Below the pieces are notes generated by a model, which was not told the origin of the DNA, made no database searches, and saw nothing but the letters and a program-made list of their open reading frames with translations. From assembly GCA_963801195.1 (NCBI GenBank), contig CAWDDX010000007.1, positions 1,129,695-1,193,694 of the forward strand: a DNA stretch of 64,000 bases. The letters are read 5' to 3'. The position numbers and the translations under genes are program-made. This document shows positions 5,287 to 61,548 of this stretch, piece after piece (within the stretch, counting starts at the first letter, position 1; each line of letters opens with the position of its first letter). This DNA is from an uncultured Gammaproteobacteria bacterium. Lineage in GTDB: Bacteria > Pseudomonadota > Gammaproteobacteria > Xanthomonadales > SZUA-36.

Positions 5287-5733
5287 TAGGAGCGGATGCC
5301 AATTCAATAGTCACCTCCGGTCGGGACCTTTGCCAAACCGGTATTTCGTGACCCCTGCGGAGGCACCTGCGGGTCAGATGTGTCAATTCAAAACCATCGT
5401 GGCCGGAAAACTGCGGCTGTAAGTGGTCCGGTTAGGGGAAGTCTTCAAGGCAGTCCGACTTGCTTCGCGCAGCTTGCAACACGCCGATATCGTTTGCAAA
5501 TATTGAATACTGTCAATTCTGACAGATGATGAACTACCTAGGATGATGTATAAATTTTACGTCAGAGTGAGAATTTCATTCTTCGACAGGGAAGTTACAA
5601 AGATAGTTTTTAAAACAAGGTAAGGGGATTACCACATGAGAGACTTACTCAACATCCGGGTATCGGATGTATTGGCTGCGCCATTCGCCACAAGCCGGGC
5701 GGTCATCAATTTCATCAATTCCAGCAGTCCGTC

Positions 5734-6990: not shown

Positions 6991-7002
6991 CAGGAGAACG
7001 GT

Positions 7003-45126: not shown

Positions 45127-48100
45127 TCATTGGCAGCTGGTTACAGCAATGGCCTGTTCAGAAACTTCACCGTTGCTTAAATCACCTTCATTAACAATGA
45201 GGTCTTCACTGCAATCGGTAGTGACCTGGAAGCCAAGCGTTGCTGTACCACCGGGTAAGGTCTGCACAAGTAATTCATCACCTTCGACCGGTGCGGTTCC
45301 CACACCATTATAGAAGTAGGTGTCACCGATCGTTCCGCCTGCATTTTCTGCACCAACTGTTCCACCATCTGCGGTGTTATCCATTTGACCATAGACGTAG
45401 TGAATTAAACCCTCGGCACAACCGCCGTCATTCCCGATCCAGACTTGCATTGTGACTGTGTCAGTGCTGCCATAAAGAGGCACTGCTTCCCATTCATACG
45501 CCGTAGCCGTGCCACAACCTAAATTGAGTACGGCGAGATACATTTCGCCACCGGCGCTCTGATTCAGGTCACGCCAGAATGGTGCAAGAATGTTATTTGG
45601 CGTTAAGGGGTTCGGCAAATCCTGGTTGTTATAGCTACTGAACACGCCACTGGCGCTGCCAGCTTCAATCGTTCCATTCACTGAAAACAGTGTATCCGTG
45701 TAGGTGACACCATTGTAGGTAAACGCCGGTACGTTATACCAATACCCACCGTCGTCGCAGTCTCCATTGCAACCTGAACTCAAGGGAGGAACACCCAGAG
45801 AAGCCAGCGGGAGATAACCGCCGGGAACAGATCCACCAGGATCCTGAGAAACATCCATTTCACCTGCAAACAATTCACCCGTCCAGGACAGGCTGTTGCT
45901 GGCTGCGTCGTACGACCAGGGTGATGAGGTTAAACCGTTATCGACGACTTCGGTTTCAGAACCGGACACAAAGCTCGTACCAGCAGGCAATACATCAGTC
46001 ACGGTGACAGGACCGTTCAGGTTTTCATTGGTCACCACCAACTCGTAGCTGAGCGTGTCGCCAGACGTTGCGTTGGAAGCATCCACGGTCTTGGTAAACA
46101 CGCCTTCATTGGTGGCCGCGACCGGTCGTACCGCAATGGGACTGCGTACCGAATAATTACCGTCATCATCGGCCCAGGTCAATGAACCAAATGCCCATTC
46201 TCCCATGACTGTATCGCCGGTGATATTAAAGGTAACCTCATAAGTCATCGAATCACCCTTTCTCAACTTGAAGCTGGATGGTGATACAGACACATCAATG
46301 CCAGGTGGTGCGTCTACGGAAACCGTGAAATTTTTGCTGCCATTGTTGTTGTAAACGGCGGTCACGGTACGTGTGATGGTCTGGGTTTCTACCAAGGAGC
46401 CGATGCCGATGGAGGCCAGATTCAGATCGCTTGGATCAAAGGAGAATCCTTCGGAGTCAAGAAAATCACAAGATTCAGAGTCTACTATATCGGCTTGTGC
46501 AGGTTCACCGCAGAGCGCTGCAAGGTAGTCAAGGAAGCCGACGTCATAGGCGAGACCCGGATCAACGGCATTGCTGGGTAATATCTCACCCGCGCCAACG
46601 TCGAATGGGTCAGCAGGGTCATCTCCAAATGACTTCTTCAGCCCATTGCGAGCAGTGGTCATCAATGCAGACCGGGCAATCGCTGGTGTCCAGTCAGGGT
46701 GTGCCTGCTTGAGCAGAGCAAACGAGCCGGCCACGTGCGGGCTGGCCATGGAAGTACCATTGTAATTGGCAAACTCTTCACCGCCGGCACCCCAGGGGGA
46801 GACAGCCGCCAGAATTTTCACACCGGGTGCGCTGAGATCGGGCTTGATTACATCGGGCATGCCATTATTGGGTCCGCGTGAGGAGAAACTGGCGATACGA
46901 TTGGAAGCAGGAACAAGACCAACCGTAACGTTCACACCGGTCTCTCCCGCCATGGTCAATCCATCATCAGTTGATACCATCACACCAGGAATGCTGGTGC
47001 CTGGGGCGGACATAGTTGTGACTGGCCTGTCATCGGTATAAACAATGATAGCAACAGCACCCGCCGCAGCCGCATTGTTGTACTTGATCGTGAAGGAACA
47101 AACTCCACGGCTGACAAGGGCAATTTTCCCAGGCATTGGATCGATGGGATCACAGGCGAGAATATCAGATGCGTTTTGAACATCGGCCGTAATGGGACCG
47201 GTGTCTTGGAATGATACTTCACCGGCACCTTCGACACCGTCATAACTTCCCGCGATACTGCCCGGGCTATTTACCTGGACATTGGCGTAAAAAACGCCAT
47301 CGTCATTGGTTGCACCGGTAGCGGTCAGCCACGGCACACCGGATGGGGTGCCCACGGTGCCCGCGTCAGGGCCGGAGTTACCGGCTGAAGCGGCTACCCA
47401 AACACCTGCATCTGCGGCAAAAAGGAATGCTAGGTCGTCTGGCGAGGCGAAAGAATTGCTGGAACCGCCGATCGAGAAGTTGATGACATCGACGCCGTCA
47501 GCCACTGCCTGGTCGATAGCGGCGGCGCTGTCTGAAGAAGCGCAACCGTCATCGGTGGTGACATTTGGATTTGGGCCGTCCCAGCAGACCTTGTAGGTCG
47601 CCAGACGTGCACGTGGCGCCACGCCACTGATGTTGCCCTGGAATACACCATTGATATAGGCGGGTACACCGTTGTTGCCGCCGGCAGTGGAAGCCGTATG
47701 ATCACCATGCCCATCCGCGTCGCGACCTGACTGGAATTCCCAGGGGGCGGTATCCGCGCCGTCGCCACCACATGGGTTACTGGCATCGGGACCGGATGAG
47801 AAACCCGAATTGTAACAACGCGCTGCAAGTAACTTGTTGTTACAGGAGAATGGCGCGTCAGCGGGGTTTGCAGCGGTATTGCCAAAATCACAACCGCTCG
47901 GGGTAAAATCGTCGATCGGGCCATATGCGATATCAGGACCCTTGTTGCCCTTCTTGGGAGTTTTAACGTCGGCGAAGCTGGGGTGCTCCGGCCAGATACC
48001 GGTATCGACAATGCCGATAACAACATCTTCACCGGTCAGACCTTTTGACCACGCCTGTCCGCCTTCGGTGAGGCCGATATAGGTCGGGCTGGTATCCGTT

Positions 48101-48546
48101 TGAAGTTTGCGGATTTCATCTTTCCAGACATGTACAACGTCAGGATTTTTCTTCAGCTTCTCAGCATCCGCTGCCGTCATACGTGCCGCAAAGCCGTTCA
48201 AGGCATAGCGGTAGTTGTAAACTTTTTCAGCACCGACACTGCGGACCACCTGGTTCTGCTTCTTTTCCAGGAAAGACGCATACTTCTTTACGGCAGCACT
48301 GTTGGGATTTAGTTTTTTACCCTTGCCAGGTTTGGTTGCCTGGTATCCCTTGATATCGCCATCATAGGCAATGACCGGGCTGGCCTGCATCTGGACGATA
48401 TAAATGTTGGATGTGGCCGACTGACTTGCTGCTGGTCTTTCCAGCAAATTACCGTTCTCACGACTGACTTTCAAATCAGCCTGAGCTGTCGCGAGACCGG
48501 TCAGACCGATCACAGTCGACAACAATAGTTTCTTAGCTAGTGACAT
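45127..48546 (-). CDS. secreted S8 subtilisin-family serine protease with PA domain and C-terminal repeat domains
   Basis: Catalytic D (GIVDTGIW), H (HGDHTAST) and S (GTSMASPHVAG). PA-domain insert (GKIALVSRGVCSF). DUF11-like segment (TLSYELVVTNENLNGPVTVTDVLPAGTSFVSGS). The signal peptide starts at MSLAKKLLL; the track ORF extends to 48597. Confidence 0.9.
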   Translation of the reverse strand: MSLAKKLLLSTVIGLTGLATAQADLKVSRENGNLLERPAASQSATSNIYIVQMQASPVIAYDGDIKGYQATKPGKGKKLNPNSAAVKKYASFLEKKQNQVVRSVGAEKVYNYRYALNGFAARMTAADAEKLKKNPDVVHVWKDEIRKLQTDTSPTYIGLTEGGQAWSKGLTGEDVVIGIVDTGIWPEHPSFADVKTPKKGNKGPDIAYGPIDDFTPSGCDFGNTAANPADAPFSCNNKLLAARCYNSGFSSGPDASNPCGGDGADTAPWEFQSGRDADGHGDHTASTAGGNNGVPAYINGVFQGNISGVAPRARLATYKVCWDGPNPNVTTDDGCASSDSAAAIDQAVADGVDVINFSIGGSSNSFASPDDLAFLFAADAGVWVAASAGNSGPDAGTVGTPSGVPWLTATGATNDDGVFYANVQVNSPGSIAGSYDGVEGAGEVSFQDTGPITADVQNASDILACDPIDPMPGKIALVSRGVCSFTIKYNNAAAAGAVAIIVYTDDRPVTTMSAPGTSIPGVMVSTDDGLTMAGETGVNVTVGLVPASNRIASFSSRGPNNGMPDVIKPDLSAPGVKILAAVSPWGAGGEEFANYNGTSMASPHVAGSFALLKQAHPDWTPAIARSALMTTARNGLKKSFGDDPADPFDVGAGEILPSNAVDPGLAYDVGFLDYLAALCGEPAQADIVDSESCDFLDSEGFSFDPSDLNLASIGIGSLVETQTITRTVTAVYNNNGSKNFTVSVDAPPGIDVSVSPSSFKLRKGDSMTYEVTFNITGDTVMGEWAFGSLTWADDDGNYSVRSPIAVRPVAATNEGVFTKTVDASNATSGDTLSYELVVTNENLNGPVTVTDVLPAGTSFVSGSETEVVDNGLTSSPWSYDAASNSLSWTGELFAGEMDVSQDPGGSVPGGYLPLASLGVPPLSSGCNGDCDDGGYWYNVPAFTYNGVTYTDTLFSVNGTIEAGSASGVFSSYNNQDLPNPLTPNNILAPFWRDLNQSAGGEMYLAVLNLGCGTATAYEWEAVPLYGSTDTVTMQVWIGNDGGCAEGLIHYVYGQMDNTADGGTVGAENAGGTIGDTYFYNGVGTAPVEGDELLVQTLPGGTATLGFQVTTDCSEDLIVNEGDLSNGEVSEQAIAVTSCQ

Positions 48547-49147
48547 AGTATATATGCTCCTTTTAAGACGACGAAGAGACTGATTGTCTTTATCCAATTT
48601 ATATGGAAAAACATTCAGTTATTAATGATTTTCATTAGGTTTTGGGTCACCAATTTCACAACTCGGTTTAAAGCAACCCTTACGCCAAACGAAATAGTCA
48701 ACAGAATTCAATCGATGGATGGCAAAGTCAAAACGTCAGACCAGAAACCATGGATTGAAATTGTTTTACTCCCTTTTCATGAATGAAAATATTCACGGCG
48801 AAATTTAAGGCTAGACCTAAAACACCACCATGTCAATTTGAAAGCAAGGACCAGCTGGATCAAAATTGTTGGTTCAAAAGATAAACAGACAACTAACTCT
48901 TTTTTTTAGTCATCTTTATTAGTCAGTTGCAGAAATTTTCTTACAATTTTTCTAGACTACTGAGATTATCGACTTCCGTGGAAGAAAATTCGGACCCAAG
49001 AACCAAATCAAACTCAATTGGCTGGTTTTCCAGAAATATAATCTGGCAAACCGTCCTGGTATCGCAAACGAGACCATCAATCTACGTTGCAGAGATCGCT
49101 TTCATTCAGGAAGTGTCAGAATCATTGAAAACGATGTTGCTCACAAA

Positions 49148-49460: not shown

Positions 49461-51050
49461 CTAACCGCCATTGTCTTTATCCAGCTTTGTTCTATCAGGA
49501 GAAATTTCATCGTCGGGCGCCGGCGGTTCCGCAGCCGCGCCGGTTGAACCGTTTACACCCTGGGCGTTTAAAAGGTCCTGGATATTGAGCGTGCCCTCAG
49601 GCGGCGGGTTGCTGCCTGCTTTTCCTTCCGCGGCTTCGCCGTTTTCCGTGGCTTCTCCTGTCAGGTATTCAAGCGCGTTCTGGGAAGCACCGGCCGTACT
49701 TTCTTCTCCGGTTGGTTCAGACAGGGCAGGGGATGTTTCGACGGGTGGGGTGCTTGACGCGGGCTTCCGGGCCGTTTCAGTCTGTTGTCCGTCCCGCGTC
49801 TGTCCTTCGTCCTGCTCGCCCTTCTGTCCGTCGATTTTGCTCTCTGCCTGCTGGTCGCCCTGGTCACCGGCTTGATCACCGTCCTGTGCCATCTCCTGAC
49901 CCTTGGCCTGAGCTGTCTCCTGTCCTTCGGTCTGGTTGTCGGATTCACCTTCGGCTTGGCCGTCACTCTTTGCACCGGCCTGACCTGCATTTTGACCAGC
50001 TTGTTGACCAGCAGCCAGAGGTTTACCATTCGTTGCGGAAGATGAACTGCTGTTTTCACCCGCACTCCCGGATTGAGCGGCAGTTCCTTTCAGGAATTCC
50101 AGAGCGTTTTGAGCGGTGCCGGCCTCGCTGGTTGACGTATCCGCAGCACTATTTGAAGCCCCACCGGCCTCACCGCTGCTTTGTTCCGCACCAGCTTGCC
50201 GGCCCGTCTGGGCAGGGGACTGCCCCCGGTCACCGGAAAGTGCAGATGTTCCCGCCTGTTCGCCATTACCGGCAGGGGGCCCGGCATTTTCTCCCGCGGC
50301 CCCGTCGCCGCCTTTGCCAAGCCCTTGCAGAAACTCCATTGCATTTTGTGACACGCCTGAAGTGCTTTTGGCGCTTGGATCATTTGCACCTGGCGAATAG
50401 GTGCCGGCAGTATCGGCCTGGCCCGAATTTTCGTCCTGGCTGTTCCGCTGACCCTGGCTACCTTCGTTCTCCTGTCCGCTTTCGCCGTCGGGCATCAAAC
50501 CGCCGCCGGTATTGTTGCCGGTACCATTTTCTGTACCCTTGGTCGCGCGGGATCCGGCCGAGTTTTCGTAAATCTGGGCCTCACGCTGGTTGTAGCTGTC
50601 GACCAGTTCGCCCCAGGCTTCCAACTCCTGCTTTTGCAGCGAAGGGTCCTTGCGGGCGGCTACGCTGGGCACATAGGGATATTCGGCGTCTTCATCGCCG
50701 GGTTGCCACGGGTCGCCCTGCACGATGATTTCCCGCAGTTCATTGCGCAGATGCTTTTGTGATTCTTCCGGCAGTTTTTCAAGCTTGTGCAGACCTGACT
50801 CGGGTTTGAATGCGGTTTCCGGGATGATACCCCGTTGCTGCTTGGCATCCTTCAGTTCCATGAACTGGCGGTAGTTGTCCTCGTTAATTTCGACCTCCTG
50901 GCTGGAAGGTGCTTCCGCTTCTTCCACCGCGGCTTTTTCGGCCGCGTCAGCAGGGGATGGTGCCGGTTGCGCTTCCTGCGCAAAAACTGACGGTGCAAAT
51001 TGCAGCACAAGGATGTTCAAAATGGCCGTCAGCGCTATCGGTTTTTTCAT
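49461..51050 (-). CDS. secreted acidic low-complexity protein with three QNA[LM]E[FY]L motifs
   Basis: 529 aa. Signal peptide ending SVFAQEA. A Gly/Gln/Glu/Ala-rich body. Starts 18 nt downstream of the kinase gene. Confidence 0.7.
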   Translation of the reverse strand: MKKPIALTAILNILVLQFAPSVFAQEAQPAPSPADAAEKAAVEEAEAPSSQEVEINEDNYRQFMELKDAKQQRGIIPETAFKPESGLHKLEKLPEESQKHLRNELREIIVQGDPWQPGDEDAEYPYVPSVAARKDPSLQKQELEAWGELVDSYNQREAQIYENSAGSRATKGTENGTGNNTGGGLMPDGESGQENEGSQGQRNSQDENSGQADTAGTYSPGANDPSAKSTSGVSQNAMEFLQGLGKGGDGAAGENAGPPAGNGEQAGTSALSGDRGQSPAQTGRQAGAEQSSGEAGGASNSAADTSTSEAGTAQNALEFLKGTAAQSGSAGENSSSSSATNGKPLAAGQQAGQNAGQAGAKSDGQAEGESDNQTEGQETAQAKGQEMAQDGDQAGDQGDQQAESKIDGQKGEQDEGQTRDGQQTETARKPASSTPPVETSPALSEPTGEESTAGASQNALEYLTGEATENGEAAEGKAGSNPPPEGTLNIQDLLNAQGVNGSTGAAAEPPAPDDEISPDRTKLDKDNGG

Positions 51051-51068
51051 GGGTTAATTCTCAAGGAT

Positions 51069-53504
51069 TTACTCGTTGATTTCACGTGCCACCCGGAAAC
51101 CGGTAAAGTCATTACGATCGCCATTTTTCAGGTTGAAGCGCGCCGGCAGCCTGATTTCTTTTGAGCCGGTGATCCATGAACCCCCACGGGTGATGTGTGA
51201 ACTGCAGATACCACGCCCCCAGGCGCTGCCGTCCACGGGCGCATCGACGTAGGACAGGTTCATGCAATCGGCGGTCCATTCCGAGACATTGCCGATGGTG
51301 TCGTACAAACCAAACGCGTTGGCCCTGAATGTACCCACCGGGGTGGTGCCCAATGCCGTTTGGTCACGGCACTGTTCGTGCTGCCACTTGAAACCGGTTT
51401 CAGCCCCGGCGACGTTGCCGTACTCGCAGACGATCGCGGGGTGTCCGCCGGGCCAATCGCTTTCCTGACCGGCCCTTGCGACGTATTCCCACTCGCTCTC
51501 ACTTGGCAGACGGTAGCTTTGACCGGTTTTCTCACTCAGCCAGTGTACGTATTCCTCAGCGTCATTCCACGAGACCATGATCACCGGCCGGCTGCCCCTT
51601 CCCCAGCCATTGTCACCCGGCTGTGCAGTACAGCCTTTATCGTTGAAACACCTGTCCCACTCGGCCATCGTTATCTCGTAAACACTGACGGCGAACGGTT
51701 TGCCGATGGTCACCAGCCTGCGGGGTTTTTCCATGCCGAGCGCCAGCGGTGAGTCCTCCGCCGATCCCTGCCAGAAGGCAGCCGAAGGTATCACCATCAT
51801 CGTGGGGCAGTCACTGCAATCCTTGAATGTCTTGCCCGGGCGCAGGGTCAGGTCATCGATATGCTGCAGTGCGGAGGCGATATTCACGCCCTTGGGAAAA
51901 GCGTCGATGTAGGCCTGGAAGGCCTCCTTGTTATTTAGCTTCAACGCGGTCTGGAAAGCCATGTCGTCTTCGGACTGGTCCTTGAGCAGGCGGCGTATAC
52001 GTGTCGCTTCTTCGATGTGCAGTCCGGCGGGCCATTCGCTGATGTAGCGGTCGAACGACTTCACCGTACGTTCACTGTTTGCGTTTTCCCAGGCCAGGTT
52101 GTCCAGTCTTTCGCGTTCCAGCCTTTCCCTTTCCTTTTTGGCCTCAGCTTGTTGGATGGCCTCGATACGCTGCAGCGCCTCGGCCTGGTGAATGCCGTCG
52201 GGGAAGACCTCGAGGTAGTCTTCATAGGCGGGTACGCGGTCCTCGGCAGACAGTGTTTTCCAGCTGTTTTCGTCCAGTATGTCCAGTTGTGTTTCGGCCT
52301 GGTCGCGGTAGATGGATTCGGGGAAATCGCTGATGAAACGCCGGTAGCCGAGCACCGTATCGGCTTTCAGTGCGCCTTGCCAGCGCTCCAGTTCCTGCGA
52401 TGATGGCTCCCGTGCGCGTTCCGTCGGTGCCACCGACGGCGATGACTCATCTGGTCCCGGCGTGCCGGCGGTCGTTGTTGGCTGCGGTGATTCACCGGTT
52501 AGCAGGTATATCCCCACGGCGGTCATGGTCAGCAGGAAAACGCCCAGAAGTATCATGGGCAACCATTCCCTGCCTTCCTTTGCATACGCATCCGTTTTCC
52601 CGGCAACGACCACCGAGCGGTGCCAGTCGAGGCTTTTAAACGATTTTTTCCATATCCCGACATCCCTGGGGCGCTCAAACCATGGCACTTTCAAGCCCAG
52701 GTCCACCGCGTCTGTCAATCCGCCATACAGACCGGTGGGCGCGAGTTCGGAAAATGCCGTCAATGGATCTGTTTCACCGATCGACAGCGCTTCCTGACGT
52801 ATCACTGCCGGGGTCGGGATCTTGCCGGTCACACAGCGGTACAGCGTGGCTGACAGGCCGTAAATATCGGTCCATGGACCAATCGGATCATCCGCATCCG
52901 ATTGCTCGGGAGCGGCATATCCTTCGCTGCCCAGTCTCGGTGTTTTCCCGGACGCTGCAGCCACACCGAAATCCAGCAATACGGGATCGCCTTGCTCCAT
53001 CATGTAGATGTTGCCGGGTTTGATATCCTGGTGAACCACACCCGCTTTGTGCATGTATTCGAGCGCGTCCATCAGCGGCAGCATCAGGGATTTTGCTTCT
53101 TCTCGATTGAAGGCGCCGTGGGATTCGATCAGCTGATGCAGTGCCTGTCCCTTGTAATAGGGCATCAGGAAATAGGCCGTACCATTGGCCTCAAAGTATC
53201 TTAAAACCTTGACAATATTGGGGTGATCGAGTGCGGCAACGATACGTGCTTCATGCAAAAAAAGTTTCAGACCCTGTGCAAAGGCCGGCGACGCTGCCGG
53301 GTCATTCGGAATGACTTTGCCGTCCTCGCCCCTGGTTACCAGTTTGGCGGGCAGGTACTCCTTGAGCGCAAACCGTGTGCCGATCGCAGGGTCGGTCACC
53401 ATGTAGGTGATACCGGTCGCGCCAACACCGAGGATGGCATTGATCTGCAAGTCGCCGATATGGGATCCGGGCTGAAGCCCTGATGACTGCACGGTCATGC
53501 CCAT
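51069..53504 (-). CDS. transmembrane Ser/Thr protein kinase with periplasmic repeats and C-terminal FGE/SUMF1-like domain
   Basis: Kinase motifs LGVGATGITY, ALKEY, HQDIKPGN, DFG, APE. One TM helix (MILLGVFLLTMTAVGIYLL). Four ~25-aa repeats. FGE-sulfatase pattern (RLPSESEWEYVARAG, GLYDTIGNVSEWT, RGGSW). Confidence 0.85.
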   Translation of the reverse strand: MGMTVQSSGLQPGSHIGDLQINAILGVGATGITYMVTDPAIGTRFALKEYLPAKLVTRGEDGKVIPNDPAASPAFAQGLKLFLHEARIVAALDHPNIVKVLRYFEANGTAYFLMPYYKGQALHQLIESHGAFNREEAKSLMLPLMDALEYMHKAGVVHQDIKPGNIYMMEQGDPVLLDFGVAAASGKTPRLGSEGYAAPEQSDADDPIGPWTDIYGLSATLYRCVTGKIPTPAVIRQEALSIGETDPLTAFSELAPTGLYGGLTDAVDLGLKVPWFERPRDVGIWKKSFKSLDWHRSVVVAGKTDAYAKEGREWLPMILLGVFLLTMTAVGIYLLTGESPQPTTTAGTPGPDESSPSVAPTERAREPSSQELERWQGALKADTVLGYRRFISDFPESIYRDQAETQLDILDENSWKTLSAEDRVPAYEDYLEVFPDGIHQAEALQRIEAIQQAEAKKERERLERERLDNLAWENANSERTVKSFDRYISEWPAGLHIEEATRIRRLLKDQSEDDMAFQTALKLNNKEAFQAYIDAFPKGVNIASALQHIDDLTLRPGKTFKDCSDCPTMMVIPSAAFWQGSAEDSPLALGMEKPRRLVTIGKPFAVSVYEITMAEWDRCFNDKGCTAQPGDNGWGRGSRPVIMVSWNDAEEYVHWLSEKTGQSYRLPSESEWEYVARAGQESDWPGGHPAIVCEYGNVAGAETGFKWQHEQCRDQTALGTTPVGTFRANAFGLYDTIGNVSEWTADCMNLSYVDAPVDGSAWGRGICSSHITRGGSWITGSKEIRLPARFNLKNGDRNDFTGFRVAREINE

Positions 53505-55018
53505 TCCGCCTCTTGTTTGACCACGTGGATCGTCACTTGCACATCACCCAGGAATATTTCGTCATCGGTTCCAATATACATGATCTCACCGGGCAGACAG
53601 GGCACATCACCGATGAAGCTGCCGTTTCGGGAGCCCAGGTCGGAAAAGGTAATCCATTCGCCCTCGGATTGAATGCGGGCATGGCGGCGGCTGATGGCCG
53701 CGTGTTCAATGGCAATATCCGCGTCACCCCTGCCAATCACGATATCTATCTGATCGATATCGATAAAACAGAAGCGCTTGAAAGACCTGTCGGAATCGAG
53801 CAACCCCTCGACGATGAGAACACCGTTGCATCCGTCGGGCCGTGTGCCCCACGCCGGCAACTCCAGGTCATAGACAGGCGCCGAGCGGGGCTTGAACGCG
53901 CTGCTTTCAGACCCGGTTTCCAAGGGCGCCGTCACCGGTTCGTCGGACGCCGGCTGAACGGTTGCGGCGGGTTCGGTCGAGGTCGTCGGCGGTGAGGGCG
54001 TGGTGCTGAGCCGGAATAAGAAAATACCTTTCCAGATGAAAACTCCGAGGACGATGAGTCCGAGCAGCGGCAGCCAGGCAGGAACATTGTGCCAGAACGG
54101 TGATGGTTCCTTTGTATTGCTTAGCGTTACCTGGCTTGCTGGCGTAATGGGGGCATCCCGTGTCGGGGTCCCGGTCGGTTCGTTGACAGTTGGTTCAGTT
54201 ACAGAGGGTTCTTCAAGGGCTCTCTCCTGTTTAGCCTCCACGACCGGTTCATGCGACTTTTCAGCTTCAAGCGGCGTATCTTTGTCGCTTGCGGTTTTGG
54301 CCGCTGATGATCCTGTGCCTGCAACGGGTTGCTCGCAGATGGCTTTGGGCACACTGATCTGCAGTACGTCAAGGTCACGGAGCAGGTCTTCTCCAAACAG
54401 GACTGAAGCGATTTTGTCACCATCCAGGCTTTGCGGTCCGCGGGCCAGGCTGGCGCCTGCGAGGTAACCGCAACTATCGAGAATCGCTCCGGTGACGTAG
54501 GGCAGGGGTGTTTCGGCTGAAATTGAAAGCTGACCGGTTTGTCCATCACGCAATACTTTCACCGGCAGCTTGAGGGGTTGCGCGCCTTTTGCGATGTACT
54601 CCGCCGGCGGGAACGCTTCCAGGTGCAGTGTTCCGCCAGTCTCCAGCGCATTGGCGGACAGCTTGATGCCCGGCCGCTTGAGACCCTTGACCGACAGGAA
54701 TGCCATATCGCCGGTGCCGGTATCGTCAACGATCTGGGCGGGACGGCCATTGCTGAGAATGTCGGCGCCGCCATCGAGCACGATCATTTCGCCGTCTTCA
54801 GCGGCAAATTCTGCAGGTACCATCACGATCCCGTCGTCCGAAACCACGATACCCGTGGTCGGCTTGACCAGCGTTTTCGAAACCAGTTTGAGGACCAGGA
54901 CCACCGATGGAGAAATCTGGACGGTTTGCTGAGCCGTGGCGGCCTGGGTCTGGGCCAGGGCGATGAGCAACAGCACAAGCCGGCTCAGAAACCCTTCACT
55001 CAAACGCCCGTCAAGCAT
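53495..55018 (-). CDS. bitopic protein: periplasmic trypsin-like (probably inactive) domain, TM helix, cytoplasmic FHA domain
   Basis: The signal peptide starts at MLDGRL. TM helix WLPLLGLIVLGVFIWKGIFLF. C-terminal FHA signature GRGDADIAIEHAAISRRHARI...GSRNGSFI. The track ORF extends to 55063. Confidence 0.7.
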   Translation of the reverse strand: MLDGRLSEGFLSRLVLLLIALAQTQAATAQQTVQISPSVVLVLKLVSKTLVKPTTGIVVSDDGIVMVPAEFAAEDGEMIVLDGGADILSNGRPAQIVDDTGTGDMAFLSVKGLKRPGIKLSANALETGGTLHLEAFPPAEYIAKGAQPLKLPVKVLRDGQTGQLSISAETPLPYVTGAILDSCGYLAGASLARGPQSLDGDKIASVLFGEDLLRDLDVLQISVPKAICEQPVAGTGSSAAKTASDKDTPLEAEKSHEPVVEAKQERALEEPSVTEPTVNEPTGTPTRDAPITPASQVTLSNTKEPSPFWHNVPAWLPLLGLIVLGVFIWKGIFLFRLSTTPSPPTTSTEPAATVQPASDEPVTAPLETGSESSAFKPRSAPVYDLELPAWGTRPDGCNGVLIVEGLLDSDRSFKRFCFIDIDQIDIVIGRGDADIAIEHAAISRRHARIQSEGEWITFSDLGSRNGSFIGDVPCLPGEIMYIGTDDEIFLGDVQVTIHVVKQEAEWA

Positions 55019-55023
55019 CTGTA

Positions 55024-55770
55024 TCAAGGTGAATAAAGCCGGTTGATCAGGTTGTCCAGGCAATATTGCCCGGAGCGATTGAGCGTGTTTTCTTCCCTGC
55101 CCTGGATCAGGTTTTGCAGGAATACCAGTATGGCCGCCATCACCAAAGCCAATAACGTAGTGCTGAAAGCGACACCGAGGCGTTCCGTGACCTGGTACAG
55201 CATTTCAGGACTCTCGACGTTGGCCCGGTCACCTGCGTAATTCAGCGCCAGCATGATGCCGATGACGGTGCCGATAAAACCGAGCGAAGGAATCAGCCAG
55301 GTGATGTAGCGGATCATGTTATAACGCAGATCAAGCTCGTGCAGAAAGAGCTCGAGACTCGAGTTCAACAGTGCATTGGTCTGATCCACTGACTGGCCCA
55401 GATTGAAATTTAGCACACAGCGCTCGATCAAACGTGGCAGAAAGCAGATGTTCCTGTATTTGCTGCTGTGAACTTTCTGATAGATAGGCGTCAGGTCGTC
55501 ACCGGGCCGAAGTACGGTTTCATCATCGAGCGGCAGGTAGTTGCGGTCAAACTGGCTTTCGTCAAGACGACCGGCGCGCCAGCGCAGGGTCAATTCACCC
55601 AGACCGAAGAAGAAAGCGACCCAAATGATGTTTTGCACCGTGAGCGGCCATGAGGCCCGCTTGATATCCAGCATGATGGCGGCCGCGCTTGGCGGAAGTA
55701 TTCTCGCCAGCAGGGCGATCACCAGGACGGACGTAACCAGGCTGATTAATAATGTGATTTGTCGAGTCAT
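55024..55770 (-). CDS. MotA/TolQ/ExbB-family proton-channel protein
   Basis: 248 aa. The family core is IPSLGFIGTVIGIMLAL...GVAFSTTLLALVMAAILVFL. Confidence 0.8.
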   Translation of the reverse strand: MTRQITLLISLVTSVLVIALLARILPPSAAAIMLDIKRASWPLTVQNIIWVAFFFGLGELTLRWRAGRLDESQFDRNYLPLDDETVLRPGDDLTPIYQKVHSSKYRNICFLPRLIERCVLNFNLGQSVDQTNALLNSSLELFLHELDLRYNMIRYITWLIPSLGFIGTVIGIMLALNYAGDRANVESPEMLYQVTERLGVAFSTTLLALVMAAILVFLQNLIQGREENTLNRSGQYCLDNLINRLYSP

Positions 55771-55791
55771 TCTGTGTCTGAGCCTTGAAGG

Positions 55792-56226
55792 TTAAGGATT
55801 GACGGACCGGTCATCTTCGATTTTACCGGTTAAGGGGTTTCGCCGGGGTTTGTTCATTAAAGGCCCGTGGTCCGGATTTCCCGAGGATGGCCTGGCGGTG
55901 GTTTTTCCGTACCTGAGATGAAAGTGTCTCGCCTCGAGCCGAGTATTCGTTCGCTTGCCGAAGATCGCTGTGAGGGTCTCCAGCGGCACTTCAACGTCGC
56001 CGAAGCGGATACGGTCGCCGATACACAAGGTGATCTTTTTCACACGGATCCAGCGTTCGTTGCGATTTAAATAGGTGCCATTGCTGGAACCCGTGTCATG
56101 TATCGTCACGAGACCGTCGCCGGCTACTTCGAGACGGGCGTGCAGACGGGAAAGCGTCGCGTGGTCGAGGACGAGGTCGCAGGCAGGGTCCCGTCCGCAT
56201 GTCTTGATTTCCGTTCCAGTACTCAC
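55792..56226 (-). CDS. stand-alone FHA-domain protein
   Basis: 144 aa. CGRDPACDLVLDHATLSRLHARL...GSSNGTYLN (canonical G-R, S-x-x-H, N-G residues) and a basic C-terminal tail. Confidence 0.85.
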   Translation of the reverse strand: MSTGTEIKTCGRDPACDLVLDHATLSRLHARLEVAGDGLVTIHDTGSSNGTYLNRNERWIRVKKITLCIGDRIRFGDVEVPLETLTAIFGKRTNTRLEARHFHLRYGKTTARPSSGNPDHGPLMNKPRRNPLTGKIEDDRSVNP

Positions 56227-56365
56227 AGGAGCTCTTTGTCCTTTGTCATCCTATTCGTTTGAGTGCGGCAGGCCATCTGTTGAAAGGCCCCTCGCCCGGC
56301 ATTCCGGAGAAATTTGTAATCAACCCGGCAGTATACTGCATTCAATTCCATGAATCGTAAATCGC

Positions 56366-57304
56366 TCATTGTGCCAGTGCCAGGAAGCCGCCGGAGTTGG
56401 CGCGCGCCAGGTTCTCCATGAATTCGACTGTTCCCTTGTATTTGAAATAGTCGCCAATGGTCACCGCATGGATTTCAACACCCCTGGTATTTGACATGAC
56501 GATATCCTGGATCAGCGCCCTGGGCGGCAGACCGCCGTTGTAGGCCGGGTTGGGCAGGCCGTCACTGAGCAGGATTACCGCTTCCGCAGGTGTCTTCAGG
56601 GCCTCGGCAAACGCATCCCGGAGCGAAGACGAGCCTTCGAATTTACCGGCCAACTGACGTGCGAAACGCTGGGCCTGCGCACGGTTTGCGGGGTTCATCG
56701 CAACCAGTCCTCCATTTTCCGGAAAACGATGATAACGGGGGCCTGAATCCAGTTGCTGAAAACCGAGAATACCAAACTCGTATCCCGGTTTGAGTGAGTC
56801 GAGTGCACGCATCACGGTTTTGGCAACCAATGCCTCGTGGTCAGCGAGATACTTGTTCATATCGACGAGCAGCAGAATGCGGGTCTTGTCGGTTTTCAAA
56901 CCGAGGAAACGAAACGTCACCAGGTTGCTGCCCTGCTTTTCTTCCGTCTCTACGGGGCTCGGCGGGGGAGGTGGCGGCTTGTCGTTGCGCGCCTGCAGTT
57001 TGGCGCGGACGGCCTCCAGTTCACTCGACATGATCTCCTGTTCCGCCTGCAGTTCCATCTCGCGGCTCTGCGCCTTACTGAGCGCATCGTTCATGCTGAC
57101 AATACCCTTCTCGGTATCGTTCATGATCGCTTCGGTCTCCCCTTTCAACGATTCGATATATTCGAGGTGCCCTTCCAGCCTGACTTCTTTTTGGTAATCC
57201 GGCATCAGGATAATCGTGATGATGATGAACGCGCCCATTGCCGAGGCGAACAGGTCGATGGCCGAGAGCGAAAAAACACCCATGTGCCGCAGGCGTGATT
57301 TCAT
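56366..57304 (-). CDS. MotB/ExbD-like TM anchor + coiled coil + vWA domain (degenerate MIDAS)
   Basis: 312 aa. TM helix with Asp (FSLSAIDLFASAMGAFIIITIIL), a heptad-rich segment, a poly-Pro linker, and a vWA core (ILLLVDMNKY, LLSDGLPN). Paralog of the adjacent gene. Confidence 0.7.
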   Translation of the reverse strand: MKSRLRHMGVFSLSAIDLFASAMGAFIIITIILMPDYQKEVRLEGHLEYIESLKGETEAIMNDTEKGIVSMNDALSKAQSREMELQAEQEIMSSELEAVRAKLQARNDKPPPPPPSPVETEEKQGSNLVTFRFLGLKTDKTRILLLVDMNKYLADHEALVAKTVMRALDSLKPGYEFGILGFQQLDSGPRYHRFPENGGLVAMNPANRAQAQRFARQLAGKFEGSSSLRDAFAEALKTPAEAVILLSDGLPNPAYNGGLPPRALIQDIVMSNTRGVEIHAVTIGDYFKYKGTVEFMENLARANSGGFLALAQ

Positions 57305-58230
57305 TTGGAAACACCCACGAAATCGCCGCCGTTCAGGCGGGCGAGCGTTTGCATGAAAAGAACCAGGTTACGGTTGTGCGTGTAGTCGCCAATCGCCACG
57401 GTGTGAATTTCAGTCCGCCGGAACTGGTTGAGCTGGGTGATGTTATCGATAATGAAACCGGGCGGGCTGTTGGGTTCGCCGTCGCTCATAAGGATAATGG
57501 CGCTGGCCGGGTATTCCAACGCTGCCTGTAGGGCAAAATGCGTCGGTGTCGAACCGACGAATTTACGCACCAGCGACTGTGTAAAGTCTGCCGCCAGCCC
57601 CAGGTTTTCCCTGGTGGCGGGAAGCAGGCGGTTACCGGTGGGGAAGCTCCAAAGCACCGGTTGCGGGTTACCGTGATAGCCGAGAATGGCGAACTGGTTG
57701 GATTCATCCAGGGGTTTGAGAATGGCGAGCACAGAGTCGATCATTTCCCGTTCGTACTGCAGCATACTACCTGACATGTCCACGACGATGACGAAGGACT
57801 TGGCCTCGGTGGCGAGACCCAGGATTGAGAATTCGACACCGTGGGTCAGAGCCTTGGGTTCCGGTTCGGGATTGATGACCTCGACCGGTTCGGTGACCGG
57901 CGTTGGCAGCGCGGCCAACTGGTTCTTGACGTCCATCAACTGCTTGCGCAGGCGCGAGACCTGCTGTTCCTGCCCCTGGTTGGTCTCGGTCAGTTCATCC
58001 AGTTCACTTTGCAGTTCCTGCTGGCGGGCTTTCAGGTCTTCCAACTCCCCGGCAGCCAGGCGGCGCTGCTCCATGATCGCCTGTGTCCTGGCAAAGGAGT
58101 CATCGGGGCCGGCATGACGGTAATAGGGGAATAGCAGCATTACCAGTAGAATAAACGCGCCCAGGGCCGAGGCGAACAAGTCGATGGCCGAGGTCGAAAA
58201 AACAGCGGTGTCTCTATCCGGGATTCTCAA
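57301..58230 (-). CDS. MotB/ExbD-like TM anchor + coiled coil + vWA domain (intact MIDAS-like DxSxS)
   Basis: 309 aa. TM helix with Asp (FSTSAIDLFASALGAFILLVMLL), a coiled-coil-like segment, a Pro-rich linker, and a vWA core (FVIVVDMSGSM, LMSDGEPN). 4-nt overlap with its paralog. Confidence 0.7.
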   Translation of the reverse strand: MRIPDRDTAVFSTSAIDLFASALGAFILLVMLLFPYYRHAGPDDSFARTQAIMEQRRLAAGELEDLKARQQELQSELDELTETNQGQEQQVSRLRKQLMDVKNQLAALPTPVTEPVEVINPEPEPKALTHGVEFSILGLATEAKSFVIVVDMSGSMLQYEREMIDSVLAILKPLDESNQFAILGYHGNPQPVLWSFPTGNRLLPATRENLGLAADFTQSLVRKFVGSTPTHFALQAALEYPASAIILMSDGEPNSPPGFIIDNITQLNQFRRTEIHTVAIGDYTHNRNLVLFMQTLARLNGGDFVGVSK

Positions 58231-58443
58231 GGATATTTTTACTTATGATTGAAGTATCAAGTTGACATGAAAGATTGCGTTTTTGTTCAATGCCGGTTCA
58301 AGTTCTGGACGATTTTGCATGTGATATATGATACCCGCACTGCGCTCAAGCTACGTTAAAATGTTGTTTAATGCTGTTTCCCGGAGGTGTCCCGGGACCT
58401 GTCCGGGTCACGGTGACCTGATTGAGGATGACGAACGGTCAAC

Positions 58444-61400
58444 ATGGAATTATATTTGATCAACCGCCGACTGGTAAAATTGCTGCTGACCCTGGCCATC
58501 CTGGTAAGCGGAGCGGCCATTCCCGCGTTATCGGGCGCGGTGGCCGCAGAACAGTCAAAGATGCAGGAATATTTTGTTCAGCAGGCGGTCAATGAGGACC
58601 TGTTAATAACGATCAACGCTTTTGAAGCCGAATTCGAGTCCAGAGTATCGGGTCCAAACGGCGAGCTTTTACTCTTGTCCGGCATCACCGGCAGCCGTAT
58701 CGTGCCGGTTTTTCAATACATCTATGCGCCTAAAAACAATCGTCAGATCGATATAGAAGTCACTTCCGGTGTGAACACAGGACGCACCGAGTTTGGTATC
58801 GAGCTGACCCGCTTGAAACCCTGGGACTCAAGGAGCAATTCCATCTCCCGGGCGTACAAATTGCTGTCGTTTGGAACGGAGCTTGATGGCAATGCAAGCC
58901 AGGTGAACTGGACGATAAAGATCGACAGCCTGACGAATGCCGGAAAGCTGTTTGAGCAATATGGTATGCAGGAAATGCGATTGTGGGCCAATTACCTGGC
59001 CGCGCACCACGTCCTGTTTTATCTGCACGACCACAGTATCGCCTACAGCATGACCCGTGACATCCTGTCCGAACTCAAGGGTACACGTCTGCAGAAAATA
59101 GAGCTCGCGACCCTGCAACTTCAAGGCATGGCGCTTATGGGTCTGAGGAAATCGGGTTCATTGAACATAAGCAAGGGAGATTCCGATCCGGTGCAGGCAG
59201 TGCTTTCACGTACGGCTGAACTCGCGCGATCGATGGGTTATGAGTATGAACTCGCGCGCGCGCTGTATGACAGCGGCCTGGAGTACGCCGGCCAGTCGTC
59301 CAATACGGACGCGCTCGATCAGTTCCAGCAGGCCGTGCAGATCGCTGACGGGGTCGGCAGTACAGAAATGGCGAAAGCGATTCGCGAAAGTATCGTTCAG
59401 GTACATACCGTCCTCGGAGACGCACCGGCCAGCAGCGAGGTGCTCCAGGAGATTGAATCCCAACTGGTCGAGGATGGCGGAGGTGACGAACTTGCTCTCA
59501 ATCTGTTGGCGCAGGCGCGCCTGTTGATTGGAAAGTACCGTTATCGCGAGGCCCTGAAGGTGTTGTCCGGTGCGCTTGCTTATCAAAACAACAGCGCCAT
59601 CCGCCGGCAAATCTATTTTGAACTGGCGAAAATTCTTTATGAAACCGGGCGCATGGACGATTCGCTGAAATACCTCCAGCTGGCCGGAATCAACCCCGAT
59701 TCAAGCCGGAATCGACGTGTAAATCCGGTGGTCGATGTCGGCGAAGGACTGCAAATCCTGGCCAATATCTACCGTTACAAGGGTGAATTTGAGCGCATGC
59801 AGACCACGCGGAGCGCGCAGGGACAGTACCGGCCGGCCACGGATCAATACCTGTATGACCAGGGCATGGACGCCCTCGCTACGCCCGGCGACCACCGGCA
59901 GCGCGCCGCATCGCTCTTGCGCCGGAGCTTTGAAGTTGCCGGGCCGGCCGGCCATGATGATATTGAACATCTGGCACAGCTGCACTATTGCGTATTGACA
60001 GACCCTGCAGATGGTTTGTGTTCAAATGCGGCACTCAACAGGGCTCATGAATGGCTTATTGCCGCGGCTGTGCCGAGGGTCACCTCGGAAGCCATGTATG
60101 TGTGGGTGCAACTGCTGTTACGTGATGGGAGGCGCGGTGAAGCCAACGCTGTTATGGAGGGGCTGATCGATGATATTCACGTGATGCGCTTTTCGCTGCC
60201 GGGGGTACTCGGCTCCTGGTACTGGGAGCGGCATGAACAGATTTTTGAAACCTGGCTCGGGATGCTCATCAGCGAGTCACGACAACGCGGCAGTACAGAA
60301 GGATCGGCGTCGTTGCTGGCCCTGAGCAAAATGAGGTTTATTGAAGGTACAACCGAGTCCTATGCCGGTAAGGGGGGGGAAGCTGACTCGTTGCGGACAC
60401 TCCTGGCACAACGCGCCGATCCGGGAGCGGGGCAGTCACGTCTGACCCTGAACGAAAAAATCATGCCTGGCCTGGACAAGCTGCGCGCAGATTTCCACGA
60501 ACGCTTTGCGTTCCTGTCAGACGCGGGTCTGAAAAAATACCTGCGTAGCCTGGCGGAAGACGAAACGGTAATGACCTATCATCTTGGCCCGCGCCTGGCA
60601 CAGGTGTGGATTGCAAACAAAAACGGGGTTCAGCGACGGGATATTGCCGATCCCGCGAAAGTGTATCAGGGTATTCAAACGGACCGGCTAAGCCTGGCGG
60701 ATATCGGACTGGCCGCTTTTGATGACAAAATGGATGAGCTGGGAAAACAACTGTTGCAACCGGTTGCCGATCTCCTGACAGACACGATCTATGCAATTCC
60801 GGCTGGCCCGCTGTTGGGGGTTCCGCTGGATGCACTGCGGTTCAATGGACATTACCTGGTGGAACGTCATAACGTGGTGAACCTGCTTTCCTTTCCGCAA
60901 AACGTCAACCCGGCCAGCAGTCTGCAGACGGGATTATTGCAAAGTGTCTTCCTCGCCGGCAACCCAATGGATTACGCAGGCGATTACGCGACCCGGCTTG
61001 AAACCTCGGCCGAGATCAGTGCGGTGGCGGACCTGTTTGTCGGTCCGGGACTGCAAATTGTGCAGGGGGTCGCCCTGTTACCCGATGAATTCCAGTCCGA
61101 CCACTTCAGCCAGTCAAACCTGGTGCACTTGTCGATGCCGGGCGTTATCAACCTCGAACATCCCGACCAATCGGGACTTGAGCTTTCCGAGAGTGAATAT
61201 GAGCCGGGGCGTGCCATACTGCTGTCCCCGGATATCCGTTCGCAGAACCTGGGTGCCGGGCTGGTATTCCTGAGTTCACTGAGACTGAGCGGAATTCCGC
61301 GCTCAGGTTTCAGCAGTCAACCCGGTCTCGTCGCGGACTTCATGGCGGCGGGAGCAGAGTCGGTCATCGTCAATTTATGGGCCGGTGACGCCGGCTCGAA

Positions 61401-61548
61401 TGTGACTTTCATCACCAGCTTCTACCGCTCGCTAAAGGCATCGGCCAACACCGCCGCGGCCCTGCGAAACTCAAGACTTGAATATTTGGAAAGTGGTCGT
61501 GATGACGGTAACTACGACTGGGCCGGGTACCAGCTTTATATCAAGTAA
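58444..61548 (+). CDS. secreted TPR-like repeat protein with C-terminal CHAT (caspase-like) domain, catalytic dyad apparently lost
   Basis: 1034 aa. Signal peptide (ALSGAVAAEQ) and a helical-repeat middle region. C-terminal CHAT pattern: LVHLSMPG...LVFLSSLRLSG...AGAESVIVNLWA...WAGYQLY. Confidence 0.7.
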   Translation: MELYLINRRLVKLLLTLAILVSGAAIPALSGAVAAEQSKMQEYFVQQAVNEDLLITINAFEAEFESRVSGPNGELLLLSGITGSRIVPVFQYIYAPKNNRQIDIEVTSGVNTGRTEFGIELTRLKPWDSRSNSISRAYKLLSFGTELDGNASQVNWTIKIDSLTNAGKLFEQYGMQEMRLWANYLAAHHVLFYLHDHSIAYSMTRDILSELKGTRLQKIELATLQLQGMALMGLRKSGSLNISKGDSDPVQAVLSRTAELARSMGYEYELARALYDSGLEYAGQSSNTDALDQFQQAVQIADGVGSTEMAKAIRESIVQVHTVLGDAPASSEVLQEIESQLVEDGGGDELALNLLAQARLLIGKYRYREALKVLSGALAYQNNSAIRRQIYFELAKILYETGRMDDSLKYLQLAGINPDSSRNRRVNPVVDVGEGLQILANIYRYKGEFERMQTTRSAQGQYRPATDQYLYDQGMDALATPGDHRQRAASLLRRSFEVAGPAGHDDIEHLAQLHYCVLTDPADGLCSNAALNRAHEWLIAAAVPRVTSEAMYVWVQLLLRDGRRGEANAVMEGLIDDIHVMRFSLPGVLGSWYWERHEQIFETWLGMLISESRQRGSTEGSASLLALSKMRFIEGTTESYAGKGGEADSLRTLLAQRADPGAGQSRLTLNEKIMPGLDKLRADFHERFAFLSDAGLKKYLRSLAEDETVMTYHLGPRLAQVWIANKNGVQRRDIADPAKVYQGIQTDRLSLADIGLAAFDDKMDELGKQLLQPVADLLTDTIYAIPAGPLLGVPLDALRFNGHYLVERHNVVNLLSFPQNVNPASSLQTGLLQSVFLAGNPMDYAGDYATRLETSAEISAVADLFVGPGLQIVQGVALLPDEFQSDHFSQSNLVHLSMPGVINLEHPDQSGLELSESEYEPGRAILLSPDIRSQNLGAGLVFLSSLRLSGIPRSGFSSQPGLVADFMAAGAESVIVNLWAGDAGSNVTFITSFYRSLKASANTAAALRNSRLEYLESGRDDGNYDWAGYQLYIK

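Follow-up and report, generated by a model that had tools for sequence, protein, structure and literature searches.

The window analysed in this work is a stretch of 64,000 nucleotides from the genome of an uncultured gammaproteobacterium (GCA_963801195.1, contig CAWDDX010000007.1, positions 1,129,695 to 1,193,694, forward strand). The gene under study lies at 58444..61548 (+) and encodes a protein of 1034 amino acids (aa), P0001, that carries TPR-like repeats and a C-terminal CHAT domain whose catalytic dyad is lost. The protein is best explained as a Sec-exported pseudo-protease that the adjacent envelope module has co-opted as a non-catalytic periplasmic subunit, and we give this whole explanation a probability of roughly 0.7. 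That the protein is an exported pseudo-protease is very probable, that it works with the neighbouring operon is likely, and a specific role as a scaffold or sensor is somewhat favoured.

The gene is an open reading frame supported by the Pfam CHAT match and by the AlphaFold2 (AF2) model. The protein consists of four parts, which are a Sec-type signal, a beta-sandwich of 85 aa, about 575 aa of TPR-like helical repeats and the C-terminal CHAT domain. The AF2 model of the whole protein, which was built on an alignment of 56 sequences, has a mean predicted local distance difference test score (pLDDT) of 85.9 and a predicted template modelling score (pTM) of 0.73. It exhibits a helix at aa 3-24, a low-confidence linker at aa 23-36, a seven-strand beta-sandwich at aa 39-124, about 30 helices at aa 129-702 and an alpha/beta domain at aa 707-1033. 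The TPR-like solenoid was assigned to aa 127-705 (58822..60558, +) from the AF2 helices and from TPR profile matches, which are weak at aa 355-420; TPR profile and designed-TPR matches were found at aa 266-296 and aa 355-420.

The CHAT domain, a caspase-like alpha/beta domain that is predicted to be catalytically dead, was assigned to aa 706-1034 (60559..61545, +) using Pfam and Foldseek. The Pfam CHAT profile (PF12770) covers aa 764-1031 at a score of 94.4 bits (E 1e-26, profile positions 5-286 of 289, cut-off 24 bits), and the protein scores 98 bits in the whole-genome profile scan. Foldseek against PDB ranked DdvA first (8rw5, 3e-13), followed by Csx29 of Craspase (8eey_B, 1e-12) and the separases (from 2e-11), with E values from 3e-13 to 1e-8 over these top matches and a probability of 1.00 for DdvA, Csx29 and separase. 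Both the profile match and the layout of a TPR solenoid followed by a caspase-like domain place the protein in the CHAT family with its caspase-hemoglobinase fold. A profile search of PDB with the family alignment returned only designed TPR proteins and a weak DdvA match that does not cover the His column. These results bear out an earlier sequence-only reading of this DNA, which had described a long helical-repeat region followed by a CHAT region and had proposed a structural comparison with separase and Craspase.

Both residues of the catalytic dyad are replaced. The C-termini of 117 homologues were aligned using MAFFT, in a set that includes four canonical CHAT proteins reading H[FL]A[TA]H[GA] ... 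LSAC, and in the window protein the column of the catalytic His holds Pro899 and that of the catalytic Cys holds Leu946. Pro899 (CCG, nt 61138-61140) belongs to HLSMPG at aa 895-900 (61126..61143, +), and Leu946 (CTG, nt 61279-61281) belongs to FLSSLRLSG at aa 942-950 (61267..61293, +). The second, canonical CHAT gene of the same genome (LHLATHG ... LSACQT) aligns in the same way as the canonical references. The Cys column was also placed directly by phmmer against PDB, where LVFLSSL of the window protein lies on LVVLAAC of DdvA and thus puts Leu946 on C907; the dyad of DdvA is H862/C907 (PMC11506125). A paralogue that keeps the dyad (the live paralogue described below) was used as a bridge: its IATH lies on LATH of DdvA (H862), its LSAC lies on C907, and it aligns column for column with the window protein.

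The sequence-only reading had claimed that HLSMPG stands in place of the His block and FLSSLRLSG in place of the Cys block. Three agreeing alignment lines confirm these claims, for Pro899 and for Leu946. No profile alignment with a His and a Cys in the catalytic columns, the outcome that had been named as counter-evidence, was found. It had also been asked whether orthologues beside similar operons share the substitutions, and Pro occupies the His column across the whole orthologous clade, including all 113 close homologues that were aligned. The two residues that mark active CHAT peptidases are therefore missing, the His of the H-x-A-x-H-G block being Pro899 (Pro is invariant in the orthologues) and the Cys of the L-S-A-C block being Leu946 in a clade-variable column. 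As judged from its sequence, the window protein is a true pseudo-protease in which the fold is kept and both dyad residues are gone.

The loss extends beyond the window. A word-indexed search identified 116 close homologues with 43-100% identity, below which the matches fell off sharply to generic TPR-CHAT proteins, and an exhaustive profile search identified 297 proteins at E <= 1e-30. The dyad columns were typed in the best 150 of these 297 matches. Pro was found at the His column in about 85 cluster representatives (82 of the 124 that could be typed), and the Cys column of these Pro-clade representatives exhibits T (38), A (12), S (8), L (6), V (6), C (5) and I (4), with G, P and K as further residues. 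Both His and Cys are kept in 42 rows, which consist of 38 representatives and the 4 canonical reference proteins.

The maximum-likelihood tree of the CHAT region exhibits one clade for all 44 dyad-dead rows (43 with Pro and one with Ala at the His column), with a Shimodaira-Hasegawa-like approximate likelihood ratio test (SH-aLRT) support of 94. The dead clade lies beside, or nested among, the live sequences, whose deeper branching the tree leaves unsettled. The members of the Pro clade that retain Cys branch early, which indicates that the His was lost once and first and that the orphaned Cys decayed later. Profile-profile comparison of the dead and live clades using hhalign gave a probability of 100 over 988 columns, and the two clades therefore share the whole architecture, including the beta-sandwich. 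On this evidence from alignment and tree, the dyad loss is a family trait and no private mutation of the window protein, and the dead lineage arose once, by duplication from a live lipoprotein TPR-CHAT protease lineage. The dead family occurs only in a single gammaproteobacterial family, most of which is uncultured. It was found in none of the 300 genomes sampled across the class and in none of the 24 genomes from other families of the order.

The dead family has been conserved for a long time. Its members span 30-100% identity, the dead CHAT domain is as conserved (0.66) as the remainder of the protein, and conservation within the domain is highest at aa 841-900, around the old active site. 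In the joint alignment, just one column, that of His/Pro, is at least 90% conserved in both clades with different residues. Eight positions, G867, P868, G869, L870, Q874, A877, D881 and E882, were gained by the dead clade (at least 90% conserved in the dead clade and below 50% in the live clade). They belong to a motif with the consensus VGPGLxIVQGxALLPDEF (GPGL..Q..A...DE), which reads VGPGLQIVQGVALLPDEF at aa 866-883 of the window protein (61039..61092, +) and lies directly before the former His strand. A few more conserved positions were gained in the beta-sandwich. The single dead clade, the conservation and the new motif together show the pattern of a pseudo-enzyme, in which the fold is kept and the catalytic residues are lost under long purifying selection.

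These data bear on the idea that the protein is still a peptidase with a non-canonical nucleophile or base, for example H895, which is retained, and a Thr or Ser in the old Cys column. Thr indeed occurs in the Cys column more often than any other residue (38 of about 85 Pro-clade representatives), and H895, S910 and S944 are conserved. However, the Cys column varies (T, A, S, L, V, I, G, P, K or C) and holds Leu in the window protein, and a Pro in the position of the general base is unable to act as a base. H895, P907, S910 and S944 show the same conservation in the live clade and are therefore ancestral structural positions, which argues against a replacement catalytic set. We consider this idea very improbable, and the loss of catalysis is retained.

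The signal peptide was assigned to aa 1-35 (58444..58548, +), which hold the sole N-terminal hydrophobic core. It was judged by hydropathy and motif heuristics and by family conservation. It consists of a basic n-region (RR, K), an h-region (LVKLLLTLAILVSGAAIPAL) with a single hydrophobic core of 19-20 residues, and a c-region (SGAVAA) with a small-x-small site (LSGA|VAA or AVA|AE). The hydropathy profile exhibits a strong hydrophobic span at aa 3-36, and the only other span above the cut-off is a buried strand at aa 860-879. The strong hydrophobic core with the signal layout is present in 112 of the 133 full-length dead-clade proteins, and a lipobox is present in only 7 of the 133. In the orthologues the core is followed by P/G and then by S-x-A|Q-like sites (SRA|Q, SFA|Q) at a fixed distance from the mature start QEYFVQQ. 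The n-, h- and c-regions and the small-x-small site are thus those of a Sec-exported protein, and the cleavable-looking signal peptide that had been noticed from the letters is upheld by its conservation. A pair of Cys residues inside the solenoid, C516 and C526 (nt 59989-60021, +), is near-invariant in the dead clade and also present in the live-clade consensus, which fits an oxidising compartment.

Export of the window protein is well supported as a prediction, because the Sec-type signal is conserved and the live sister clade carries lipoprotein signals. The signal could also remain uncleaved and tether the protein to the inner membrane as a type II signal anchor, which is what AF2 might suggest by drawing one helix over aa 3-24 and what a hydrophobic core of about 20 residues would allow. 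A conserved Pro/Gly helix breaker and the small-x-small motif, at a fixed distance from QEYF in most orthologues, speak against such an anchor, and we regard it as unlikely. The bulk of the protein is predicted to be periplasmic whether the signal is cleaved or anchoring. The general statement in the sequence-only reading that CHAT domains are usually cytoplasmic needs softening, since DdvA and the live paralogues of the window protein are periplasmic.

The live paralogues form the sister clade. A live copy at 25-28% identity, which keeps HIA[ST]H[AV] and LSAC and begins with a signal of the lipoprotein type, was identified in six genomes from other genera of the same bacterial family (L017-L022). 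A lipobox is present in 19 of 28 live paralogues. They sit away from the motor operon, at unlinked loci, and adjoin an extracytoplasmic function (ECF) sigma factor (Sigma70_r2/r4) and an anti-sigma-like transmembrane protein in 6 of 6 loci (in L019, for example, at 3068-6259 -, 6349-6963 + and 6950-7672 +). This anti-sigma-like neighbour is 225-246 aa long and consists of a short cytoplasmic head, one transmembrane helix and a periplasmic tail, a predicted topology that is that of a single-pass anti-sigma factor. The live sister locus resembles a DdvA whose parts are encoded as separate polypeptides. In L019-L022, the live CHAT gene also has an astacin M12A gene and a conserved gene of 160 aa as neighbours.

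The occurrence of the live copies was compared with a possible decoy role, in which the dead protein would be a regulatory partner of a live CHAT paralogue, as an inactive heterodimer like cFLIP with caspase-8, and its synteny with the motor operon would be incidental. The TPR-CHAT part of DdvA is a dimer (PMC11506125), and live paralogues of the same architecture do occur in the same bacterial family. However, a search of the window genome with P0001 found only P0001 itself and no live superfamily member, which argues against a cFLIP-like decoy role. A live copy is present in only 6 of 30 genomes with a dead copy, and always at an unlinked locus. The second CHAT gene of the window genome (G000:C7:1796932-1797765, L004; 231 bits, LHLATHG / LSACQT) is of the distant canonical type, is unrelated to the dead family at the superfamily level, and is followed by a gene for a secreted protein of 500 aa. 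A decoy role is thus highly improbable, and the association with the adjacent operon is the preferred explanation.

This partner operon lies at 49461..58230 (-) and was delimited from domains, topology and synteny. It consists of vWA1 (57301-58230, -), vWA2 (56366-57304, -), a small FHA protein (55792-56226, -), a MotA/TolQ-like protein (55024-55770, -), an ectodomain-transmembrane-FHA protein (53495-55063, -), a Ser/Thr kinase with a transmembrane helix and an FGE-sulfatase ectodomain (51069-53504, -) and an acidic secreted protein (49461-51050, -). The divergent arrangement of the CHAT gene and the vWA-vWA-FHA-MotA/TolQ-like-FHA-kinase/FGE genes was found in 31 of the 31 species loci with enough flank, which substantiates the divergent pairing proposed by the sequence-only reading. 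The same arrangement recurs in 7 distant genera and in 3 contigs from metagenomes. On its other flank, the CHAT gene is bordered by genes that vary by locus and encode a flavin adenine dinucleotide (FAD) oxidase, a thiamine pyrophosphate (TPP) enzyme or an alpha/beta hydrolase. The identity to the window is 78-95% for the MotA-like protein, 57-94% for the vWA proteins and 30-72% for the dead CHAT protein. Among 61 relatives, 30 have the dead CHAT gene and 31 have the MotA-like gene, and these are largely the same genomes. Their presence and absence agree in 58 of the 61, and the mismatches are two fragmented assemblies and one genome (G028). The genomic linkage to the TolQ-like/vWA-axle module is therefore conserved, with G028 as the one exception.

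The intergenic region at 58231..58443 is a putative divergent control region common to the CHAT gene and the vWA operon. It contains conserved blocks that are invariant in 5 species, namely TTGACA, GTTCAATGC, ATATGATACC and GCTACGTTAAAATGTTGTT. A promoter scan of this region returned weak promoter-like matches only. A 16-nt palindrome at 58380-58407 was considered as an operator and was rejected, as it lies inside a 23-nt insertion that is unique to the window.

A partial Mantel test was performed on the pairwise distances of 29 taxa, with the trend of the MotA distance removed; as an internal control, the periplasmic part of a protein was set against its cytoplasmic part. The residual divergence of the dead CHAT protein correlates with the kinase ectodomain (0.65), the vWA2 head (0.49) and the FHA-protein ectodomain (0.44), each with p ~0.001 by permutation, although the pairs are non-independent, the reference protein is very slow, and rate shifts shared by envelope-exposed domains could explain the correlations. 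The cytoplasmic part of the kinase (0.14) and the head of vWA1 (0.12) do not co-vary with the dead CHAT protein. The co-variation is taken as a lead only on the partner. The metal ion-dependent adhesion site (MIDAS) of vWA1 was considered as a binding site for the conserved D881-E882, a candidate without support, as the MIDAS is invariant with or without CHAT and vWA1 does not co-vary.

Conserved synteny, purifying selection and the co-variation hint suggest that the dead CHAT gene is co-regulated with the operon and that its product has a binding or scaffold role. The course of events began with the duplication of the gene for a live lipoprotein TPR-CHAT protease. The His was fixed as Pro in one copy, and the Cys column then drifted (to Leu in the window protein). 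In the proposed role, the dead copy would have been recruited to the module that consists of a TolQ/MotA-like channel, the vWA pair as an axle, two FHA proteins and the transmembrane Ser/Thr kinase with its FGE-sulfatase ectodomain. There, the beta-sandwich, the TPR groove and the remodelled face of the former active site may bind a periplasmic partner or ligand without cleavage. The putative partner would most likely be the kinase ectodomain, the vWA2 and FHA-protein ectodomains, or both. Binding would couple envelope events to the kinase/FHA switch or to the motor, and a binding-based output would replace the proteolytic output of the ancestors. The fold, the dyad loss, the export signal, purifying selection, the evolutionary origin and the strict synteny are established by this analysis, and the physical partners, the binding mode and the signalling output are inferred.

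Several observations weigh against this explanation. The whole operon is present without the dead CHAT gene in G028 (L023, G028:C25:40000-59900), a genome of the same family that is 99% complete and in which no dead CHAT was found anywhere at E <= 1e-20. A distant module in another gammaproteobacterial family (G187) also has no CHAT. This reduced module (L061, G187:C1:4000-22302) consists of a MotA-like protein (50% identity), a PP2C phosphatase, one transmembrane vWA protein and an ectodomain-transmembrane-FHA protein, without the kinase. The CHAT protein is therefore an accessory and not a core part. The vWA1 MIDAS is intact where CHAT is absent, and vWA1 is therefore independent of CHAT. 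The limits of the Mantel test, the length of the hydrophobic core, which suits an anchor, and the fact that the loss of activity is read from the sequence belong to the same side.

The absence from G028 would also suit an exported binding protein that is unrelated to the operon, with the divergent order merely inherited within one bacterial family. The confinement of the dead family to a single taxonomic family agrees with this, as the synteny may partly reflect shared ancestry. However, the arrangement is retained in 41 loci across a divergence of the protein down to 30% identity, and the genes on the other side of the CHAT gene differ between loci. The agreement with the MotA-like gene across the 61 relatives, the conserved non-coding blocks between the gene and the operon, and the co-variation with the periplasmic domains of the operon only also speak against an unrelated protein. 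An unrelated function is accordingly judged improbable, and recruitment to the envelope module remains the preferred explanation.

Among known systems, DdvA, an anti-sigma factor of Myxococcus xanthus (8ROT/8RW5; PMC11506125), is both the best sequence match among solved structures and the best fold match. It likewise consists of a periplasmic TPR solenoid and a CHAT domain, and its His-to-Cys spacing is 45 residues compared with 47 in the window protein. However, DdvA keeps H862/C907 where the window protein has Pro and Leu. DdvA is also fused to a cytoplasmic zinc anti-sigma domain and a transmembrane helix and has no N-terminal beta-sandwich, whereas the window protein has a signal peptide only; its mature part starts 5-8 residues after the signal and it has no cytoplasmic domain, so that it is not a DdvA-type transmembrane anti-sigma factor. 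DdvA is tied to sigma regulation, and the link to ECF sigma and anti-sigma factors in this work belongs to the live sister clade and not to the window protein, whose neighbours are the vWA/TolQ-like/FHA/kinase genes with no adjacent sigma factor.

Csx29 of the type III-E CRISPR Craspase and separase exhibit the same layout of a solenoid and a caspase-like domain (Foldseek 1e-12 for 8eey_B and 2e-11 to 5e-9 for separase). They are cytoplasmic or nuclear, active, regulated by RNA or securin, and only 10-13% identical to the window protein, which has no nucleic-acid or CRISPR context. Pseudo-caspases and other pseudo-proteases, such as cFLIP and the cyanobacterial pseudo-orthocaspases, keep the caspase-type fold with replaced catalytic residues under purifying selection for a non-catalytic role. 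The window protein shares these three features with them. cFLIP and the pseudo-orthocaspases belong to other caspase-hemoglobinase subfamilies and are cytoplasmic, and cFLIP pairs with a live paralogue, a pairing that the phyletic pattern does not support here.

The module itself resembles a reported class of systems. Pairs of transmembrane vWA proteins with a trans-pore helix have been described (Mol Biol Evol 2025, PMC12204202) beside TolQ-like genes without TolR, and it has been proposed that they form the axle in a 5:2 motor. The window operon matches these systems in its two heterologous transmembrane vWA proteins, the conserved Asp in the helix, the TolQ/MotA-like neighbour and the lack of a TolR/ExbD gene. 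That report describes no CHAT protein, and G187, the sole more distant copy of the module that was examined, has no dead CHAT. A periplasmic TPR scaffold is also found in the cage of the Campylobacter flagellar motor (9hmf), around an ion-driven motor of the MotA/MotB type (Foldseek 2e-6 to chain K). This match is through TPR repeats only (TM-score ~0.2), the scaffold has no CHAT domain and the window has no flagellar context; the likeness is an analogy and not evidence of homology.

Further features of the window were identified. The N-terminal seven-strand beta-sandwich at aa 37-126 (QEYFVQQ...INAFEAEFES; 58552..58821, +) is common to the dead clade and the live paralogue clade. When it was modelled alone (pLDDT 88), the best Foldseek TM-score was 0.71, to the collagen-binding domain of ColH, with further fold likeness to GOLD domains, carbohydrate-binding modules (CBMs) and generic jelly-rolls. 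It has no Foldseek match at E <= 0.001 and no Pfam family, and the domain is left unnamed. The NCBIfam search returned nothing meaningful.

In the operon, the vWA1 MIDAS motif D-x-S-x-S (VVDMSGSM) is invariant in 40 loci, vWA2 is invariantly degenerate at the MIDAS (DMNxY/F), and the Asp-containing transmembrane helix SA[IV]DLFASA is kept in both. No Pfam family matches the FHA-protein ectodomain (aa 45-320), even with the threshold relaxed to E 10. Many orthologues of the secreted protein, which is acidic and of low complexity, contain SQNA[LM]E[FY]L two to four times, and these copies resemble short linear binding motifs. As ligands of the dead CHAT protein these motifs have no support, since the CHAT-less genome keeps one copy (SQSALEFL). 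A large S8 subtilase with a PA domain lies beyond the end of the operon in the window (45127-49147) and in one close relative (L003:1-479). The more distant loci L001 and L002 lack it at this position, and it is therefore probably outside the module. The assignment to a known anti-phage system is unsupported, as PADLOC matches no defence model to CHAT and matches only a generic kinase and a ZorA-like MotA.

The literature searches brought up neither a description of a dead CHAT family nor a system that combines CHAT with vWA, FHA and MotA-like genes. Dead proteases as such are common, and this family is limited to one largely uncultured gammaproteobacterial family. It provides a clean natural example of the origin of a pseudo-enzyme, as the live parent lineage persists and one founding His to Pro event was followed by Cys decay, a new conserved motif and a move to a different signalling module. 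The split DdvA-like sister clade could help to test the proposed CHAT-driven release of ECF sigma factors. The dead TPR-CHAT protein adds a concrete, testable periplasmic component to the uncharacterised vWA-axle/TolQ-like motor system. A bolder and improbable extension is that it could serve a new kind of ion-driven envelope machine as its load or sensor arm in the periplasm. The vWA-axle motor would pull on this arm or be braked by it, the solenoid and the remodelled former active site would hold the ectodomains of the kinase and the FHA protein like an uncleavable substrate, and envelope or ligand events would be converted into Ser/Thr phosphorylation. If this is true, a pathway of regulated proteolysis would have been turned into one that is based on binding and force, as compared with the release of sigma factors in the live sister clade.

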